From Xanthobacteraceae bacterium (lineage in GTDB: Bacteria > Pseudomonadota > Alphaproteobacteria > Rhizobiales > Xanthobacteraceae), in assembly GCA_035601815.1 (NCBI GenBank), contig DATNNN010000160.1:1-61403 (forward strand): 61,403 nt of DNA, read 5' to 3'. A program made the translations under genes and the position numbers. The notes under the pieces were generated by a model, which had not been told where the DNA came from, ran no database searches, and saw only the letters and a program-made list of their open reading frames with translations. How positions within the stretch are numbered: position 1 is the first letter of the stretch; each line of letters starts with the position of its first letter. This document shows positions 3,043 through 53,571 of the stretch, piece after piece.

Positions 3043-3720
3043 ATGACCGATCCCATTCCCGAGCTTCCCCGCGAATCCAAGCGCGGGCCCCGGCGTACCG
3101 GCCTGATCGTGGTGGCGGCGCTGGCAGGCGCGGCCGTCGGGCTCGCGGCGGTATACGGGATCGGCGGCATCAAGCGCAATGGAACGGCGGCGACCGACCC
3201 CGCCTGCGTTGCCGCCGCCGCCATGGCGCGGCGCCTCGCTCCGCTCGCGCGCGGGGAGGTCGCGGCGTTAACGCTGAATCAAAACCCGCAGCGGCTGCCC
3301 GATCTCACGTTCCTCGGCGCCGACGGCAAGCCGGTGAAGCTTTCGGATTTCCGCGGCCGGACGGTGCTCCTGAACCTGTGGGCGACGTGGTGCGTGCCCT
3401 GCCGCAAGGAGATGCCGGCGCTCGATCAGCTCGCGCGCCAAGCAGGCGACAAGTTCGAGGTGGTGGCCATCAACCTCGATACCGGCGACCGGCAGAAGCC
3501 GAAGCGATTCCTCGCGGAGATCGGCGTCAGCAAGCTCGCCTACTACGAGGACCCGTCCACCGGCGTGTTCCAGGAGCTGAAACGCCTCGGCCACGCGCCC
3601 GGTCTGCCCACGTCGATCCTCATCGACGGCGAGGGATGCGAGATCGGCTATCTCGCCGGGCCGGCGGAGTGGGCGTCGGCGGACGCGCTCAAGCTCGTGC
3701 GCGCGGCGGTCGGCGGATGA
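3043..3720 (+). CDS. tlpA: Thiol:disulfide interchange protein TlpA (membrane-anchored thioredoxin-like)
   Basis: 225 aa with an N-terminal TM anchor. Active site [16 protein letters not shown] and C-terminal [21 protein letters not shown] closely match Bradyrhizobium TlpA as I recall it. Divergent from argH. Confidence 0.85.
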
Positions 3721-3768
3721 CCGGCGAAAACGGGTCGCGCCGGCGGACGGCCGCTGGCATATAGAACC

Positions 3769-4683
3769 ATGCCGCGCATCCAGCCCATGAGCGCCCTCGA
3801 CTGGGCCGCCCTCGTGCTCCTGTCACTCATGTGGGGGGCGTCCTTCTTCTTTGCCGGGGTGGCGCTGATGGAAATCCCGCCGTTCACGCTCACCTTCATC
3901 CGCATCTCGGTGGCCGCGGCGATGCTGATCGTGATCCTCGCCGCCTCCGGCAGCTTCGTGCGGGTCGATCTGCGGACGATCGGCGGCTTCTTCATGATGG
4001 GCTTCATCAACAACGTCATCCCCTTCAACCTTCTGTTCTGGGGGCAGACGCACATCGCGAGCGGCCTGGCCTCGATCTTCAACGCGACCATGCCGTTGTT
4101 CACCGTGGTGGTGGCGCACTTCGTCACCCATGACGAGAAGATGACGCCGGGAAGGGTGGCGGGGCTCGTGCTCGGCTTCGCCGGCGTCGTGGTGATGATC
4201 GGCCCGGAGCTCATGCGCGAGCTCGGCACCAACGTGCTGGCGCAGGTCGCCTGTCTCGTCGCCGCGTTCTTCTACGCGATCTCGGCGATCTATGCGCGGC
4301 GGTTTCGCGAGCTGCCGCCGCTCGTGCTCGCCACCGGGCAGCTCTCGGCCTCGACGCTCATGCTGGCTCCGCTCGTGCTGATCGACCGGCCGTGGACGCT
4401 GCCGATGCCGTCGATGCGCGCGCTCTGGGCGGCGCTCGGCATCGCGGTCATCTCCACGGCGCTCGCCTATCTCGTCTACTACCGCATCATCGCCAAGAAC
4501 GGTGCCACCAACGTCTCGCTCGTCACCTTCCTCATCCCGGTGAGCGCGATCCTGCTTGGCGTGACGTTCCTCAAGGAGACGCTGACGCCGAACGAGCTGA
4601 TTGGCTTCGCGCTGATCGGCTTGGGCTTGGCCGCGATCGACGGGCGGCCGGCGGCGCGCCTACAGAAAGCGTTCGTGCGCTAG
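3769..4683 (+). CDS. EamA/DMT family transporter
   Basis: 304-aa polytopic membrane protein with two EamA-like halves. Its stop codon (4681-4683) overlaps the relic hbd stop on the opposite strand. Confidence 0.85.
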   Translation: MPRIQPMSALDWAALVLLSLMWGASFFFAGVALMEIPPFTLTFIRISVAAAMLIVILAASGSFVRVDLRTIGGFFMMGFINNVIPFNLLFWGQTHIASGLASIFNATMPLFTVVVAHFVTHDEKMTPGRVAGLVLGFAGVVVMIGPELMRELGTNVLAQVACLVAAFFYAISAIYARRFRELPPLVLATGQLSASTLMLAPLVLIDRPWTLPMPSMRALWAALGIAVISTALAYLVYYRIIAKNGATNVSLVTFLIPVSAILLGVTFLKETLTPNELIGFALIGLGLAAIDGRPAARLQKAFVR

Positions 4684-4744
4684 CGCGTCGGCACCGGCTT
4701 GTCGCCGCGGTAGTCGTAGAAGCTGCGGCCCGCCTTGCGGCTGA
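4680..4744 (-). pseudogene. Relic 3' end of hbd (last ~20 codons: ...GRSFYDYRGDKPVPTR*); left copy of the direct repeat
   Basis: 4681-4741 matches 5723-5783 with 1 mismatch over 61 nt (2 over 64 nt). The translation equals the C-terminus of the intact Hbd except for G->S. Confidence 0.85.
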
Positions 4745-5786
4745 ATTTTTTGAGTTCAACCATCGACGTTGAATACCGAGCGATAGCTGGCGTCCGCAAA
4801 GATTTTGCTCTTTTGAGCAGCGTCGTATCTCGGCACGGCAGCGGCAGATAGGTCCCTGTCCGAAAACATTCCGTACACGACAAACCAACCTTCGCTCGCG
4901 CGGTAATCCGGCGCGATATGCTCGCGAACCACTTCAAGTAATAGATTCAGCGCTCTTGCGATTTCTGCTGCCCTTTCGCGAGCCTCCTTAATCACGCTCT
5001 CCCACTTTTTTGATAGTCTTTCGTAGCGGTCCTCGTCCCATTCGCTTATTTGGTAAAATTTCGGAATGCAATAAAACTGAGGAAGCATGTCATGGCCGGA
5101 GTGTTGAACAAAAAAATGTATGTAATCATCAATGGCCTTTGTCAGGTTTAGTGCAGAGATTTCTATTTTTGGCATTGAATTCGGCCAAAATTGACGTGCG
5201 ATCCAAGTGGCAAATCCGAAGAGCATGTCCGCGAATTCTTTTTGGATCATTGGATACTCATCACTAGCCATCCAACCAAGCCATCCATCTGCTTTGTCAA
5301 AGCGCAACATTTGCTCGATATTTGCGATGATCGATGCGTATTTTTCTTTGGTCGCTAGGTCGCTCTTTTGTTGCGGAGAGAGTTGCGCCTCGACCCATGC
5401 TTCATGGGTGGCCTTCATTTCGCGAAGTTTGTCCACAGTATAGGTGTCTTCGTGATCATCCACGATCTTGTGATCGATCCGACAAAGTAGAATCAGATTG
5501 TCGTAAGAATCACGAAATTCCTCCGGGTAGGTTGGATCGAAGCGAGGGCCACCTGGGCTCCTAGCCTTAATGTGACAAACATCTCCAGTGATTGATGGAT
5601 CTAGAGAATTGTCGGCACGATAGGTTACTAGCCGACGACAGTCCGGATTGGAGCATCTAGCTCCGGCGCGGCCCCACAAACTTACGCGCGTTACGAGCGA
5701 GACCATCGTTTTGCAAACGAGTTAGCGCGTCGGCACCGGCTTGTCGCCGCGGTAGTCGTAGAAGCCGCGGCCCGCCTTGCGGCCGA
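4745..5786. mobile_element. 1,042-bp low-GC insertion: HNH nuclease gene plus a replacement copy of the hbd 3' end
   Basis: The offset between repeat copies is exactly 1,042 bp. Hand-counted lines inside give about 35-47% G+C versus about 73% just outside. The cargo is a single ORF with 13-nt and 15-nt flanks. No recombinase is present. Confidence 0.45.
4756..5706 (-). CDS. HNH endonuclease with an uncharacterised ~230-aa C-terminal helical domain
   Basis: 316 aa. N-terminal beta-beta-alpha-Me/Zn motif: C18-x4-C23, CHI (H45), DNLILLC (N70, C75), DH (H79). The rest has no motif I recognise. Low GC. Lies 15 nt downstream of the hbd stop on the same strand. Confidence 0.85.
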   Translation of the reverse strand: MVSLVTRVSLWGRAGARCSNPDCRRLVTYRADNSLDPSITGDVCHIKARSPGGPRFDPTYPEEFRDSYDNLILLCRIDHKIVDDHEDTYTVDKLREMKATHEAWVEAQLSPQQKSDLATKEKYASIIANIEQMLRFDKADGWLGWMASDEYPMIQKEFADMLFGFATWIARQFWPNSMPKIEISALNLTKAIDDYIHFFVQHSGHDMLPQFYCIPKFYQISEWDEDRYERLSKKWESVIKEARERAAEIARALNLLLEVVREHIAPDYRASEGWFVVYGMFSDRDLSAAAVPRYDAAQKSKIFADASYRSVFNVDG

Positions 5787-6603
5787 GCCAGCCGGCCTCG
5801 ACGTATTTCACCAGGAGCGGACAGGGGCGGTACTTGGAATCGGCCAGGCCCTCGTGCAGCACCTGCATCACCGAGAGCACCGTATCGAGGCCGATGAAGT
5901 CGGCGAGCTGCAGCGGGCCCATGGGGTGGTGGGCGCCGAGGCGCATGGCGGTATCGATCCCGTCCACCGAGCCCACGCCTTCGTAGAGCGTGTAGATCGC
6001 CTCGTTGATCATGGGCAAAAGGATGCGGTTGACCATGAACGCCGGGAAGTCCTCGGCCACCGCGTAGGTCTTGCCGAGCTTCGTCACGAACGCCTTGGCG
6101 AGCTCGAAGGTCTCCTCGCCGGTGGCGATGCCGCGCACGAGCTCGACCAGCTCCATGACCGGCACCGGGTTCATGAAGTGAATGCCGATGAAGCGCTCGG
6201 GCCGGTTGGTGGAGGCGGCGAGGCGCGTGATCGAGATCGACGAGGTGTTGGTGGCGATCGTCGCGTCGGGCTTCAGGATCGGCGACAGGTCGGTGAAGAT
6301 CTTGCGCTTGACCTCTTCCTTCTCGCTCGCCGATTCAATCACGAGATCGCAGTCGGCGAGATCGCCCATGCGCTCGGCTGGCTGGATGTGGGCGAGCGCC
6401 GCCTTGCGCTCGTCCTCCTTGATCGTGCCCTTCGACACCTGGCGCGCCATGTTGCCGTTGATGGTGGCGAGCGCCGATTTCACCCGCTCCGGGCTCACGT
6501 CGTGGATCAGGATGTCGTAGCCGGCGAGGGCGCCGACGTGGGCGATGCCGTTGCCCATCTGGCCGGCGCCGATTACCCCAATCTTTTTCAGCGGCTTCGC
6601 CAT
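5722..6603 (-). CDS. hbd: 3-hydroxybutyryl-CoA dehydrogenase (NAD-binding 3-hydroxyacyl-CoA dehydrogenase)
   Basis: 293 aa with a Rossmann motif IGVIGAGQMGNGIA. Full-length Hbd/PaaH-like. Follows etfBA. Confidence 0.92.
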   Translation of the reverse strand: MAKPLKKIGVIGAGQMGNGIAHVGALAGYDILIHDVSPERVKSALATINGNMARQVSKGTIKEDERKAALAHIQPAERMGDLADCDLVIESASEKEEVKRKIFTDLSPILKPDATIATNTSSISITRLAASTNRPERFIGIHFMNPVPVMELVELVRGIATGEETFELAKAFVTKLGKTYAVAEDFPAFMVNRILLPMINEAIYTLYEGVGSVDGIDTAMRLGAHHPMGPLQLADFIGLDTVLSVMQVLHEGLADSKYRPCPLLVKYVEAGWLGRKAGRGFYDYRGDKPVPTR

Positions 6604-6608
6604 GGCGG

Positions 6609-7553
6609 TCAGGCCTTGTTCTTGTCGAGCTCTTTCGCGAGCTCGGGCAGCACCTGGAACAGATCGCCGACCAGGCCATAGTCGGCGACCTGGAAGATCG
6701 GCGCCTCCTCGTCCTTGTTGATGGCGACGATGACCTTGGAGTCCTTCATGCCGGCAAGATGCTGGATGGCGCCGGAGATGCCGGCGGCGATGTAGAGCTC
6801 GGGGGCCACCACCTTGCCGGTCTGGCCGACCTGCCAGTCGTTCGGCGCGTAGCCGGCGTCGACGGCGGCGCGCGAGGCGCCGACGGCGGCGCCGAGCTTG
6901 TCGGCCACGGGCTCGATGTATTTGGCGAAGTTCTCCTTGCTCGCGAGCGCGCGGCCGCCGGAGAGGATGATGCGCGCGGCGGTAAGCTCGGGCCGATCCG
7001 ACTTCGACAATTCTTCGCCGACGAAACCGGAAAGACCGGGGTCGGCGGCCGCGGCGACCGGCTCGATCGGCGCGCTGCCGTCTTCGCCCGCCGCCTGAAA
7101 GCCGGCGGTGCGCACGGTGATCACCTTCTTCTTGTCGCCGGACTGCACCGTCTCGATGGCGTTGCCGGCGTAGATCGGCCGCTCGAAGGTGTCGGGGGAG
7201 ACCACCTTGGTGATCTCGGAGACCTGCATCACGTCGAGGAGTGCCGCCACCCGCGGCATGATGTTCTTGCCGGCGGTGGTGGCGGGCGCGACGATCGCAT
7301 CGTAGTTCGCCGCGAGCGACACGATCAGCGCCGCCATGGGCTCGGCGAGGCGATGGGCATAACGCGCGTCGTCGGCGATGAGCACCTTCGATACGCCGCC
7401 GAGCTTGGCGGCGGCCTCGGCCGCGGTTTTCGCGTTCTGGCCGGCGACCAGCACGTGCACGTCGCCGCCGATGGCTTTCGCGGCGGTGAGCGCCTTGGCG
7501 GTGACGCCGTTCAGGGTCTTGTCGTCATGCTCGGCGACGAGGAGGACCGCCAT
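6609..7553 (-). CDS. etfA: Electron transfer flavoprotein subunit alpha
   Basis: 314 aa with the C-terminal FAD-binding region ([19 protein letters not shown]). Overlaps the etfB stop by 1 nt. Confidence 0.93.
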
Positions 7554-52353: not shown

Positions 52354-53571
52354 CTATAGAACTTCGACCGCTGTCTGCGACCCAATCCCCCATACTGAGT
52401 CTTTGCGCTTGACCCAGACGAACCCTTCACCCTTGGAGAGGACGGCGATGTCGATCGGTCCTCCGACGGTCTCCTTTTGCGTCACCGACATCCGTGCCCG
52501 AAATGCAGTGAGGTTGACTAGCGCCTCGGCCATCGCTGCAAGATCGTGGCGGGGCAGCGCCGCCACCGCAGCCATAAATGGTTGTGCGTATCGTCTCTGG
52601 ACCTCTTGTTCCATTTTTTCGTGAAGATCGTTTGCGGCCTTCTCGACCCGCGCGCGCGATCGCCTCTTGCTGCTTTTGCTGGCTTGTACCGGCCGGCGTC
52701 TAGCAATCATCTCCACAAATTTCTCTTCGAGCTCCGGAAAAATCCCGCGAATGATCATGTCGATCGTCTCTCTCTGCGCGAACGGAACGATCATTGCGTC
52801 GTCATCGCGGGTCACGCGTATGTCGCGTACTTTTGCGTACCTCAGTCTTCCTACCGCAATACTCCCAACGCGATAATGCAGCAGGATGGGAAAAAGATCG
52901 GATTCGCCCATGCCGGCGATGACGACCCCGCTTCCGGCGCTTGGCACTGTGGTGTGCATCAAGCGGACGGTCGTCCTAAGAGCCGGCCCGACATGTCGTG
53001 ACAATTTGAGCGAGCCGAACATTTCCTGCTGCAGCTCGTCGAGAATGTCGCCGTACGCGGCCACAACGTGATCTCCATATGCCGGCCCCAACTCCTCAAC
53101 GATCGGATGTTTGTTCCACAATTTATGGTCTTCGTGGATCAGTTCTTCCAGAATCCCGCTTGCATTGCTCGCTGCGCTTTTTGTCCGATCTACCAATTTC
53201 TTCTTCAATGGGTCCAGATAGAGATCCTGCCATACGTCTTTCACAAACGAGCGGATTTCTGCACGCTGGGCCGATTGTGGGAATAGGGACTCGGTTCCCT
53301 CGACGAAGCGAAGGAAGTCATGAGCGTATTGTTCGAGCGTCTCGAATCTACGACCATCGAGCTTCTGGCCATAAATCTTGATGATGATCTCCCAGGGCAC
53401 GCCCATGAAATCGGCTGACCCATGCGTCATAATGCCGACGGCTGCTGGCGGCGAGAGAGGAAAAAGCTTCTCGGCGCTGTGATAAATTTTCTCGCCTTCA
53501 CCCAAGGTAACAGCGCTGTCGGCAGCGAGGGCGATTCCGCGCCTATTCATCACGGCGACCTCACAGGTCAT
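52354..53571 (-). CDS. Ntn-hydrolase, HslV/proteasome-beta-like, 405 aa with large inserts (uncharacterised)
   Basis: Begins M-TCEVAVMNRRGIALAADSAVTLGEGEKIYHSAEKLFPL..GSADF, alignable to the HslV N-terminus (Thr1, Asp17, TLG21-23, Lys33/34). SD AAGGGGA. An in-frame TGA lies one codon upstream of the ATG. C-terminus GGPIDIAVLSKGEGFVWV. Lower GC than the flanks. Confidence 0.7.
   Translation of the reverse strand: MTCEVAVMNRRGIALAADSAVTLGEGEKIYHSAEKLFPLSPPAAVGIMTHGSADFMGVPWEIIIKIYGQKLDGRRFETLEQYAHDFLRFVEGTESLFPQSAQRAEIRSFVKDVWQDLYLDPLKKKLVDRTKSAASNASGILEELIHEDHKLWNKHPIVEELGPAYGDHVVAAYGDILDELQQEMFGSLKLSRHVGPALRTTVRLMHTTVPSAGSGVVIAGMGESDLFPILLHYRVGSIAVGRLRYAKVRDIRVTRDDDAMIVPFAQRETIDMIIRGIFPELEEKFVEMIARRRPVQASKSSKRRSRARVEKAANDLHEKMEQEVQRRYAQPFMAAVAALPRHDLAAMAEALVNLTAFRARMSVTQKETVGGPIDIAVLSKGEGFVWVKRKDSVWGIGSQTAVEVL

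Follow-up and report, generated by a model that had tools for sequence, protein, structure and literature searches.

An HNH nuclease gene behind the hbd stop codon of a Xanthobacteraceae bacterium, followed by a displaced copy of the hbd 3' end

The mobile ORF elements (mORFs) of fungal mitochondria are found in atp6 of Allomyces macrogynus and in atp6, atp9, cox2 and nad3 of Glomus, and their endonuclease is reported to drive their mobility (PMC3630166). Chromosomal integron cassettes of bacteria are reported to be rich in compact single-gene defence nucleases (bioRxiv 10.1101/2024.07.02.601686), and one-ended integration by homology-facilitated illegitimate recombination is an established process (PMC3240628). 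We describe here a 61,403-nt stretch of DNA from a Xanthobacteraceae bacterium (the window; contig DATNNN010000160.1 of assembly GCA_035601815.1), in which the gene for an HNH nuclease lies directly behind the stop codon of the housekeeping gene hbd and is followed by a second, orphan copy of the hbd 3' end. Single foreign genes that are accompanied by neither a recombinase, nor repeats, nor an island are common in bacteria, and the route by which they have arrived is rarely traceable. The two independent junction scars and the eleven diverged occupants of one site that are described below provide a readable record of this route, and the route read from the scars is recombination, for which the conserved 3' end of a housekeeping gene would provide the anchor.

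Structure of the hbd locus and its nuclease

The gene for 3-hydroxybutyryl-CoA dehydrogenase (hbd) is the final gene of an etfB-etfA-hbd operon, and its 3' end is present twice in the window. The features of the locus are listed below in the direction in which hbd is read (ORF, open reading frame).

5722..6603, minus strand: intact hbd, identified as an ORF with Pfam matches to 3HCDH_N (E 3.6e-60) and 3HCDH (E 3e-33)
5723..5786, minus strand: repeat copy A, the 3' end of the functional hbd gene (…LGRKAGRGFYDYRGDKPVPTR followed by bases one and two of the stop codon), 62/64 identical to copy B
5707..5721, minus strand: spacer of 15 nt between the hbd stop and the HNH start (6-16 nt in the clade, usually with GAGG)
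4756..5706, minus strand: gene for the HNH nuclease of 316 amino acids, the sole cargo and the only supported ORF in the insert
4745..4755, minus strand: distal end of the foreign DNA, 11 nt past the HNH stop, forming in sequence a non-homologous junction with the orphan tail
4681..4744, minus strand: repeat copy B, the orphan hbd tail joined to native downstream DNA, 62/64 identical to copy A
3769..4683, plus strand: eamA-family transporter gene, convergent with hbd, identified as an ORF with a Pfam match to EamA (E 7.4e-41)

The two copies form a direct repeat of 64 nt (4681-4744 and 5723-5786) and are 1,042 nt apart. They differ at 4724/5766 and 4742/5784, so that a single mismatch lies within the first 61 nt. 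When the hbd tail is aligned locally with the DNA past the HNH stop, the score is 60, as compared with a mean of 11.3 (standard deviation 1.7, maximum 19) for shuffled sequences. A third copy of the hbd tail is not present within the 61-kb window. The initial annotation, a first reading of the same DNA, had claimed a direct repeat of 61-64 bp, with the right copy as the real end of hbd and the left copy as an orphan whose stop overlaps that of the transporter gene. Exact alignment shows that the repeat exists, and the ORFs, the Pfam matches and the positions of the stop codons agree with this assignment of the two copies. The product of the intact gene is 81% identical in amino acid sequence to Hbd of the Xanthobacteraceae type, and copy A retains both glycine codons that are invariant across the 91 Hbd tails that were compared. 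At both mismatches a G has changed to A in the orphan, and these invariant glycine codons thereby read as serine (…FSRKAGRSFYDY…). A tblastn search matches hbd residues 262-293 at 4790-4683.

The boundary of the repeat falls within the stop codon, a detail that is absent from the initial annotation. The working hbd gene ends with TAA at 5722-5724, and the third base of this codon lies outside the repeat and is supplied by the insert. In contrast, the orphan ends with TAG, which is the complement of 4680-4682. The stop codon of the eamA gene (TAG, 4681-4683) lies within copy B and overlaps the orphan stop (CTA, 4680-4682) in the palindrome CTAG. Because the eamA stop is inside copy B, the duplication has left both hbd and eamA intact.

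The insert between the copies consists of 978 bp of low-GC (guanine plus cytosine) DNA with one ORF of 316 amino acids. Its flanks are 15 nt long on the hbd side and 11-13 nt long on the orphan side, the larger value being obtained when the 2-nt TC microhomology at 4743-4744 is counted, and the earlier description of the insert as almost exactly one ORF agrees with this. A repeat search detects no inverted repeats at the insert boundaries, and the insert encodes neither a transposase nor an integrase, its only ORF being that of the HNH nuclease; both of these absences had been noted before. In windows of 200 nt the GC content is 0.40-0.55 within the insert and 0.63-0.72 outside it, with a mean of 0.66 for the window, of which the insert is the deepest GC dip. 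The drop in GC content that the initial annotation had reported is thus real, but its figure of ~73% for the DNA just outside is too high. The HNH gene has a GC content of 0.49 and a GC content at third codon positions (GC3) of 0.50, as compared with a GC3 of 0.94 for hbd.

The same structure is present in an independent metagenome assembly from ENA (L082; L numbers denote the loci compared), which is 99.88% identical to the window over 9,986 nt. None of the 12 differences between them is located within 4564-6378. This result makes an assembly artefact very unlikely.

A terminator-like GC hairpin followed by a T-run is located at 4721-4752 on the plus strand, 38 nt past the eamA stop, and is composed of the orphan tail and an A/T-run at the end of the cargo. 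Both mismatches between copies A and B lie within the stem of this hairpin, and one of them adds an A-T pair. The orphan tail may have been co-opted as a terminator of eamA, but two terminator-like sites are found where 1.7±1.5 are expected by chance, and the fold of the hairpin is not exceptional. No Rfam match is found in 3700-6700. Elsewhere in the window, a second low-GC region at ~52.6-53.9 kb (down to 0.50) contains an ORF of 405 amino acids (52354-53571, minus strand), which may be another acquired gene, and further GC dips are located at 54.9-55.3 kb and 60.0-60.6 kb.

The nuclease is composed of two parts. Residues 1-112 form an HNH (ββα-Me) domain of the Cap5 type, in which C18, C23, H45, N70, C75 and H79 are invariant in an alignment of 34 sequences. 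Residues ~113-316 form a helical domain, in which W174, P175, E248, A252, N254 and R261 are conserved in the same alignment. The structure is modelled by AlphaFold (AF2) with a pLDDT of 90 and a pTM of 0.87. In a Foldseek search, the first 112 residues of this model superpose on the nuclease domain of Cap5 (7rwk_A) over 112 columns with 32% identity (E 9e-4), while the C-terminal helical part of ~200 residues has no structural match in PDB or BFVD. The PADLOC matches are likewise confined to the HNH part (residues ~5-158) and are to PDC-M68A (9.5e-31), SAVED_HNH (7e-26), a CBASS effector (6e-25) and SduA (3e-11). The match to PDC-M68A is not full-length, because it joins residues 8-110 to profile positions 11-113 of 253, and no literature on the name PDC-M68 was found. 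No Pfam match is obtained for the protein, including HNH_3 and NUMOD-type families, and NCBIfam gives nothing useful. One PHROG of unknown function covers most of the protein, and the matches to PHROGs annotated as HNH endonuclease are weak (E 0.003-0.13); the HNH fold and the catalytic residues are present, and the subtype is Cap5/HNH_2-like. The Cap5-like fold of the model and the matches to HNH models of PADLOC effectors suggest a function of the defence type, and the nuclease is most likely a stand-alone defence or abortive-infection effector, the helical C-terminal domain of which probably serves as a sensor or regulatory domain.

A profile search with E <= 1e-30 collects 911 clusters at 50% identity. 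The family of HNH-helical proteins is therefore sizeable and, as far as the literature found goes, uncharacterised. About ten distant members are flanked by repeats with the hallmarks of integron attC sites. In two such loci, L141 and L142, the stop codon lies within the inverse core (GTCTAAC) and is followed by an imperfect palindrome that ends with GTTAGGC, with fold z values of -3.7 to -5. The cassette members come from Lysobacterales and Vibrio, show about 30-35% identity and have stable attC hairpins. The sites are at 4926-4988 and 5969-6031 in L141 and at 4705-4810 and 5969-6077 in L142; further distant members of this kind are present in L197, L201, L100, L102, L178, L123 and L198. In Pseudolabrys (L117, 4995-5984) and Methylocystis (L133, 4980-5984), a distant homologue forms a solitary low-GC islet of ~1 kb between host genes, without repeats or a recombinase, near genes that are thiC-like and ahcY-like by their N-terminal sequence only. 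Single-gene islets seem to be typical of the family.

Occupied and empty hbd loci

The HNH gene is found behind hbd in eleven distinct variants (window/L082, L083-85, L086, L087, L088/89, L250/51, L252-55, L256/57, L258, L259/60 and L261). It begins 6-16 nt past the hbd stop and on the same strand in all eleven, in the context etfB-etfA-hbd-HNH-…-tlpA-argH. The variants are diverged, with amino acid identities of 50-76%, and come from different Hyphomicrobiales, so that the site is occupied in at least eleven lineages of soil bacteria. Full-length relatives at 50-60% identity are rare and nearly all metagenomic. The hbd-linked HNH genes form a monophyletic clade on a long stem; the spacer (…TGAGGC…ATG) is homologous in most of them. 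Their monophyly and this common spacer indicate a single origin of the hbd-HNH junction, from which it follows that fidelity to the site can result from homology-dependent transfer without any recognition of a target. No HNH gene is located near hbd among 160 more distant relatives (26-41% identity) from many phyla, and the contigs of the nearest outgroup, P0017, are too short to give a gene context. Searches with the protein and with a family alignment detect no member of the clade in 185,579 species-representative genomes. IMG/VR contains no member of the clade either, only distant relatives (<=35% identity), and these, together with the lack of a structural match in BFVD, provide no phage vector for the gene.

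A second orphan tail is present in L256 and L257, which come from separate JGI samples. The hbd tail at 2150-2186 is repeated at 3741-3777, with 36 of 37 positions identical. This orphan sits past the cargo, which consists of the HNH gene and a gene for a protein of 136 amino acids on the opposite strand, and ends with TAA, in contrast to the TGA of the working hbd. The DNA past the orphan is the native upstream region of yjfB, with the CATTCGTTAACGC motif that it has in common with empty loci, while the DNA past the working stop is the spacer of the element. An occupied site with the same gene next to a duplicated gene end, which the initial annotation had proposed as a check, therefore exists. 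The orphan is ~47-50 nt long in L256/L257 and 61-64 nt long in the window. Both lineages have the stop codon as proximal boundary but not the same distal joint, and in both the orphan adjoins native downstream DNA and has a stop codon different from that of the working copy. A constant proximal boundary with a variable distal joint is predicted if one joint is homologous and the other illegitimate, but not if integration occurs at a fixed att site. A duplicated hbd tail is not found in the other nine lineages (L083, L085-L088, L250, L252, L258 and L261 examined).

Strong nucleotide conservation of the hbd tail is seen whether or not a genome carries the HNH gene, and it makes the tail a workable anchor for recombination. 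The two tail copies of each orphan-bearing genome share synonymous variants that differ between the genomes (TAC/TAT, GTG/GTA), indicating that the replacement end is not a diverged foreign segment. The aspartate in the sequence YRG-D-KPVPTR is present in 8 of 11 occupied tails but in only 3 of 36 empty tails that can be compared with them; its distribution follows the HNH subclade even where the hosts are unrelated. This skew suggests, from sequence comparison, a co-transfer of the final ~25 nt of hbd together with the cargo, although it also fits a target preference.

The 136-amino-acid gene, which is tail-to-tail with the HNH gene, is intact in L088/89 (L088, 1325-1735, minus strand) and L256/57 (L256, 3164-3574, minus strand), and remnants of its last ~20 codons are present in L252-254 (L252, ~3197-3256) and L258 (~2707-2757). 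It has no match in Pfam or PADLOC, and neither the window nor any distant family locus contains it. It was rejected as a conserved partner of the nuclease, because it is present in only part of the hbd clade. Heptamers that resemble RYYYAAC and GTTRRRY near the HNH and 136-amino-acid stops of some loci are probably due to chance, because their spacing is far too short for attC. The only disrupted copy seen is that of L259 (276-986), which is cut to 236 amino acids by an insertion sequence (IS) with a DDE_3 (IS630-like) transposase at 983-2047.

The HNH gene is missing from all 80 of the species-representative hbd loci that are closest to the window. In the nearest relatives, L003 and L004, the Hbd of which is 81% identical, hbd faces eamA directly and the two stop codons are 7 nt apart or overlap. 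These junctions support a tight convergent arrangement of hbd and eamA as the ancestral state, which matches the arrangement preserved at the orphan. The empty sites that the initial annotation had expected in relatives are thus present, with the convergent junction that it had envisaged; the alternative that it had named, an arrangement of host-like composition carried by all relatives, is contradicted by these empty sites and by the low GC content of the insert. The hbd 3' end of L088 is 94.5% identical in nucleotide sequence to empty Bradyrhizobium loci, and the similarity halts at the stop codon and resumes ~1.6 kb further on at yjfB. The Hbd of the empty L022 is 96% identical to that of the occupied L250 and L252.

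The interval between hbd and tlpA ranges from 80 to 3,700 nt in 41 empty genomes and has a host-like GC content, and no foreign cargo is located at the hbd stop in 76 empty loci. For these two reasons the hbd end was rejected as a general integration hotspot. The interval can hold other foreign genes, though not at the hbd stop, as in Hansschlegelia (L046), in which a different low-GC gene of 202 amino acids (5221-5829) is located beyond yjfB. In the empty Bradyrhizobium loci L007 (~4890-4990) and L012 (~4885-4930), a palindromic repeat (…GCCGTAGGGTGGGCAAAGGCGCA…), which is probably a genus-specific REP-like (repetitive extragenic palindromic) element, directly follows the hbd stop.

The divergence of the nuclease gene is not in proportion to that of its hosts. 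Between L250 and L252, the synonymous divergence (dS) is 1.55 for the HNH gene and 0.26 and 0.49 for hbd and etfA respectively, with the caveat that a strong codon bias in hbd lowers its dS. The nonsynonymous divergence (dN) of the HNH gene is 0.11-0.17 among Bradyrhizobium-like hosts and 0.16-0.19 between these hosts and L087, while the dN of hbd and etfA differs 4-7 fold between the same two comparisons. Wherever dS can be estimated, dN/dS of the HNH gene is 0.07-0.10, which indicates strong purifying selection and therefore a selected protein function. As judged from these sequence divergences, the history of the HNH gene is uncoupled from that of the host, and simple vertical descent is rejected. 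The unrooted quartet topologies of the HNH and host genes do not conflict, so that the incongruence is one of proportions, which is compatible with either horizontal exchange or very old allelic lineages. The gene has a GC content of 0.46-0.49 and a GC3 of 0.46-0.50 in all occupied loci, as compared with 0.71-0.94 for the GC3 of the host hbd.

Possible routes of spread

The reading that we rank first, and to which we give about an even chance, is that an accessory nuclease gene, probably of the defence type, was captured once behind hbd and was spread passively by recombination anchored in the hbd tail, with one-ended integration leaving the orphan. The gene would have been captured directly past the hbd stop in an ancestor among the Hyphomicrobiales and would then have passed from lineage to lineage through homologous recombination, for which the exceptionally conserved final ~75 nt of hbd would have served as the anchor. 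Such anchoring keeps the gene always at one position, co-oriented and probably co-transcribed with etfBA-hbd. When donor and recipient have the downstream DNA in common, a clean two-sided replacement without a repeat would result. In the lineage of the window, the recipient would have had eamA downstream and the donor would not, and integration would have been one-ended. On the hbd side, homology would have settled the joint as far as the stop codon. On the far side, the incoming DNA would have been joined non-homologously, with 2 nt of TC microhomology, to the recipient tail at a point 61-64 nt before the recipient stop. The product would be an hbd gene with the new stop TAA, the cargo, and the displaced native tail, in which the old stop TAG lies where eamA still ends. 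This product could be given by homology-facilitated illegitimate recombination, by a Campbell-type single crossover of a circle that carries the tail, or by one-ended repair of a break in hbd; in the Campbell-type route, the repeats of 61-64 nt would also permit re-excision as a circle of 1,042 bp. We infer this recombination pathway from the junctions, and on this reading the nuclease would be dispensable for its own mobility. Horizontal movement has presumably been repeated, with the hbd-HNH junction kept each time, as far as can be judged from the sequences of the occupied loci.

Several points weigh against this reading. Recombination between flanks that are ~75-80% identical is very inefficient, and repeated spread may need a helper, such as a break made by the nuclease. 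Sliding-window identity reveals no co-conversion tract in hbd, the 3' third of which is equally conserved in control pairs, and the homologous joint is therefore deduced rather than seen. The GC3 of the HNH gene stays at ~0.50 in every host despite saturated synonymous sites between the alleles, although a long stay in genomes with 60-67% GC would normally push it up. Possible reasons for this steadiness are that biased gene conversion acts only weakly on rare accessory genes, that low expression is selected for, or that a lower-GC reservoir lies outside the sampled genomes. In addition, the defence function of the family is presumed, and structure searches give the C-terminal domain no recognisable relative.

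The explanation that we rank second, possible but distinctly less probable, is homing driven by the nuclease. The enzyme would cut the conserved hbd 3' region of genomes that lack the gene, and the break would be repaired from an incoming hbd-HNH copy. Where homology exists on the hbd side only, repair would be one-ended, with the new strand joined to the other broken end, and the segment from the cut, at least 61-64 nt upstream of the stop, to the insertion point would be duplicated. The restriction of one family to one precise site in at least 11 lineages, the empty sites in close relatives and the lack of any other foreign cargo at the stop of the 76 empty loci are what such a process would give, as are a gene history uncoupled from that of the host, the purifying selection and a cargo that is itself a nuclease with an intact HNH active site. 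The topology is exactly that of the mORFs of fungal mitochondrial atp6, atp9, cox2 and nad3 (PMC3630166), phages are known to have free-standing homing genes of the HNH class (T4 mobE, PMC2790892), and aspartate is enriched in the occupied tails as if the persisting empty alleles were resistant variants. However, the occupied allele is not visibly immune. The native tail is complete in copy A as far as the stop, and copy B shows no change between -43 and the native DNA that follows its stop. A target of <=40 bp that lies within the tail or spans the stop would thus still be found in an occupied genome, and a target would be disrupted only if it were unusually long or distant. Different hosts have no conserved sequence in common beyond the stop. 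The inserted end is nearly identical to the orphan, unlike the ends reported for the mitochondrial mORFs, and is therefore not a diverged, cleavage-resistant version. In subtype, the HNH domain matches that of non-specific defence effectors (Cap5, SduA) and not that of known homing enzymes, it gives no HNH_3 or NUMOD-type match in Pfam, the distant relatives are integron cassettes or are located at varied sites, some elements carry the 136-amino-acid gene as an extra passenger, and the monophyly and common spacer account for the site fidelity without target recognition.

The remaining explanations are much less probable than either. A site-specific recombinase acting in trans, such as an integron integrase at a secondary site or the integrase of another element with the hbd tail as its att site, would make the repeat a duplicated att core. 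This is improbable, even though L141 and L142 are true cassettes with an attC that overlaps the stop, the unit has the size of a cassette (about 1 kb with one promoterless ORF), and direct repeats of a gene 3' end are typical of integrase-mediated islands. An attC origin was rejected for the copy in the window and is largely refuted, because a palindrome of the form RYYYAAC…GTTRRRY is missing, the DNA between the HNH stop and the orphan measures only 11-13 nt, and the orphan region, with a fold z of about +1, folds no better than shuffled sequences. No GTTRRRY core is present at the junctions, the insert contains no integrase, and a repeat that varies in length (61-64 nt and ~47-50 nt) and is missing in nine lineages provides no fixed att core. 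It is still less probable, and indeed highly so, that the gene resided behind hbd before the genera split and was lost in most of them, with the repeat as a later, unrelated local duplication. The long stem and deeply diverged alleles of the monophyletic clade, the strong purifying selection and the agreement of the unrooted quartets would fit such ancient residence, but the divergence of the HNH gene is the same for hosts with 95% and 73% identical Hbd, dozens of independent precise losses would be needed to leave all 80 nearest species representatives empty, and the GC3 stays near 0.50 in all hosts at saturated synonymous sites. The two orphans, moreover, are located exactly at the distal boundary of the cargo and are each joined to native DNA, and thereby mark insertion events rather than random duplications. 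Mis-joined contigs can yield short direct repeats, but the chance that the repeat and insert are products of assembly or chimerism is negligible, because the structure recurs in the independent ENA assembly that differs by 12 single nucleotides elsewhere, an analogous structure is present in the separate JGI samples L256 and L257, and hbd, the HNH gene and eamA each retain an intact reading frame.

Comparison with known systems

No description was found in the literature of a single-gene nuclease element that lacks a recombinase and is fixed at the stop of a bacterial housekeeping gene with orphaned gene ends, nor of the HNH-helical family. Two components are already known, namely the topology, from fungal mitochondria, and the head of the nuclease, from CBASS. 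The N-terminal 112 residues have the same fold as the CBASS effector Cap5 (PDB 7rwk, 8fmh and 9dih), with 23-32% identity and conserved metal and zinc ligands. However, Cap5 has a SAVED domain and a neighbouring cyclase, while the present protein has neither, its C-terminus being helical and its gene having hbd and eamA as neighbours. The defence nucleases of integron cassettes (bioRxiv 10.1101/2024.07.02.601686) are similar in being compact promoterless single-ORF cargo, and distant members of the HNH family are true cassettes, but the hbd-linked clade has neither attC nor an integron context and is located in Alphaproteobacteria at one fixed housekeeping site. The family, with about 900 clusters at 50% identity, is a good candidate for a compact single-protein defence system, and its C-terminal part may offer a new regulatory domain for structural study.

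Among mobile elements, Tn7 inserts at attTn7 downstream of glmS, where the conserved 3' coding end of a housekeeping gene likewise sets the insertion point and the gene is not disrupted. Tn7, however, carries genes for a transposase and a target selector of its own and generates duplications of 5 bp, and nothing comparable is present here. Insertion sequences and transposons have a transposase, terminal inverted repeats and a short target duplication, while the present element has none of the first two and a duplication of 61-64 nt. Integrative elements of the integrase type have an integrase and a fixed att core, while the HNH gene is the only ORF here and the repeat is variable or absent. 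The combination of one homologous anchor and one illegitimate joint is shared with homology-facilitated illegitimate recombination (PMC3240628), and a displaced gene end that is kept as an orphan next to new cargo is also seen in the effector/immunity arrays of the type VI secretion system (PMC5361080). Those cases are experimental or come from polymorphic toxin loci, while the pathway is read here from two junction structures.

The free-standing HNH homing genes of phages (T4 mobE, PMC2790892) resemble the hbd-linked gene in being small intergenic nuclease genes beside a conserved gene in a host operon, in lacking a recombinase and terminal repeats, and in their presence/absence polymorphism. 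They differ in that they reside in phage genomes with donors supplied by co-infection and have other HNH subtypes and DNA-binding modules, and the co-conversion of flanking markers that has been shown for them is not detectable here. The resemblance to the mORFs of fungal mitochondria (PMC3630166) lies in an endonuclease ORF in the 3' part of a conserved gene, where a replacement C-terminus in front of the ORF keeps the gene intact and the native C-terminus is left orphaned and untranslated downstream, and in a patchy distribution among close relatives with horizontal spread. In contrast to the present gene, which encodes a Cap5-type HNH protein behind a stop codon and a 15-nt spacer, the mORFs encode LAGLIDADG or GIY-YIG enzymes that are often fused in frame. 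Their replacement ends are foreign and 64-81% identical in nucleotide sequence to the native ends, while the two copies are 97% identical here (62/64, and 36/37 in L256/L257). Furthermore, the orphan is present in only 2 of the 11 lineages, the host is a bacterial chromosome, and the dependence on the nuclease is putative.

It is possible, though less likely than not, that the clade represents a bacterial chromosomal homing element, a prokaryotic counterpart of the mORFs with a nuclease recruited from the Cap5-like HNH family. If so, free-standing homing genes would persist and spread in bacterial chromosomes behind housekeeping operons, and defence nucleases and homing nucleases would interconvert. 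If the nuclease drives the process, homing would occur outside phages, introns and inteins in a form that is known so far from fungal mitochondria.

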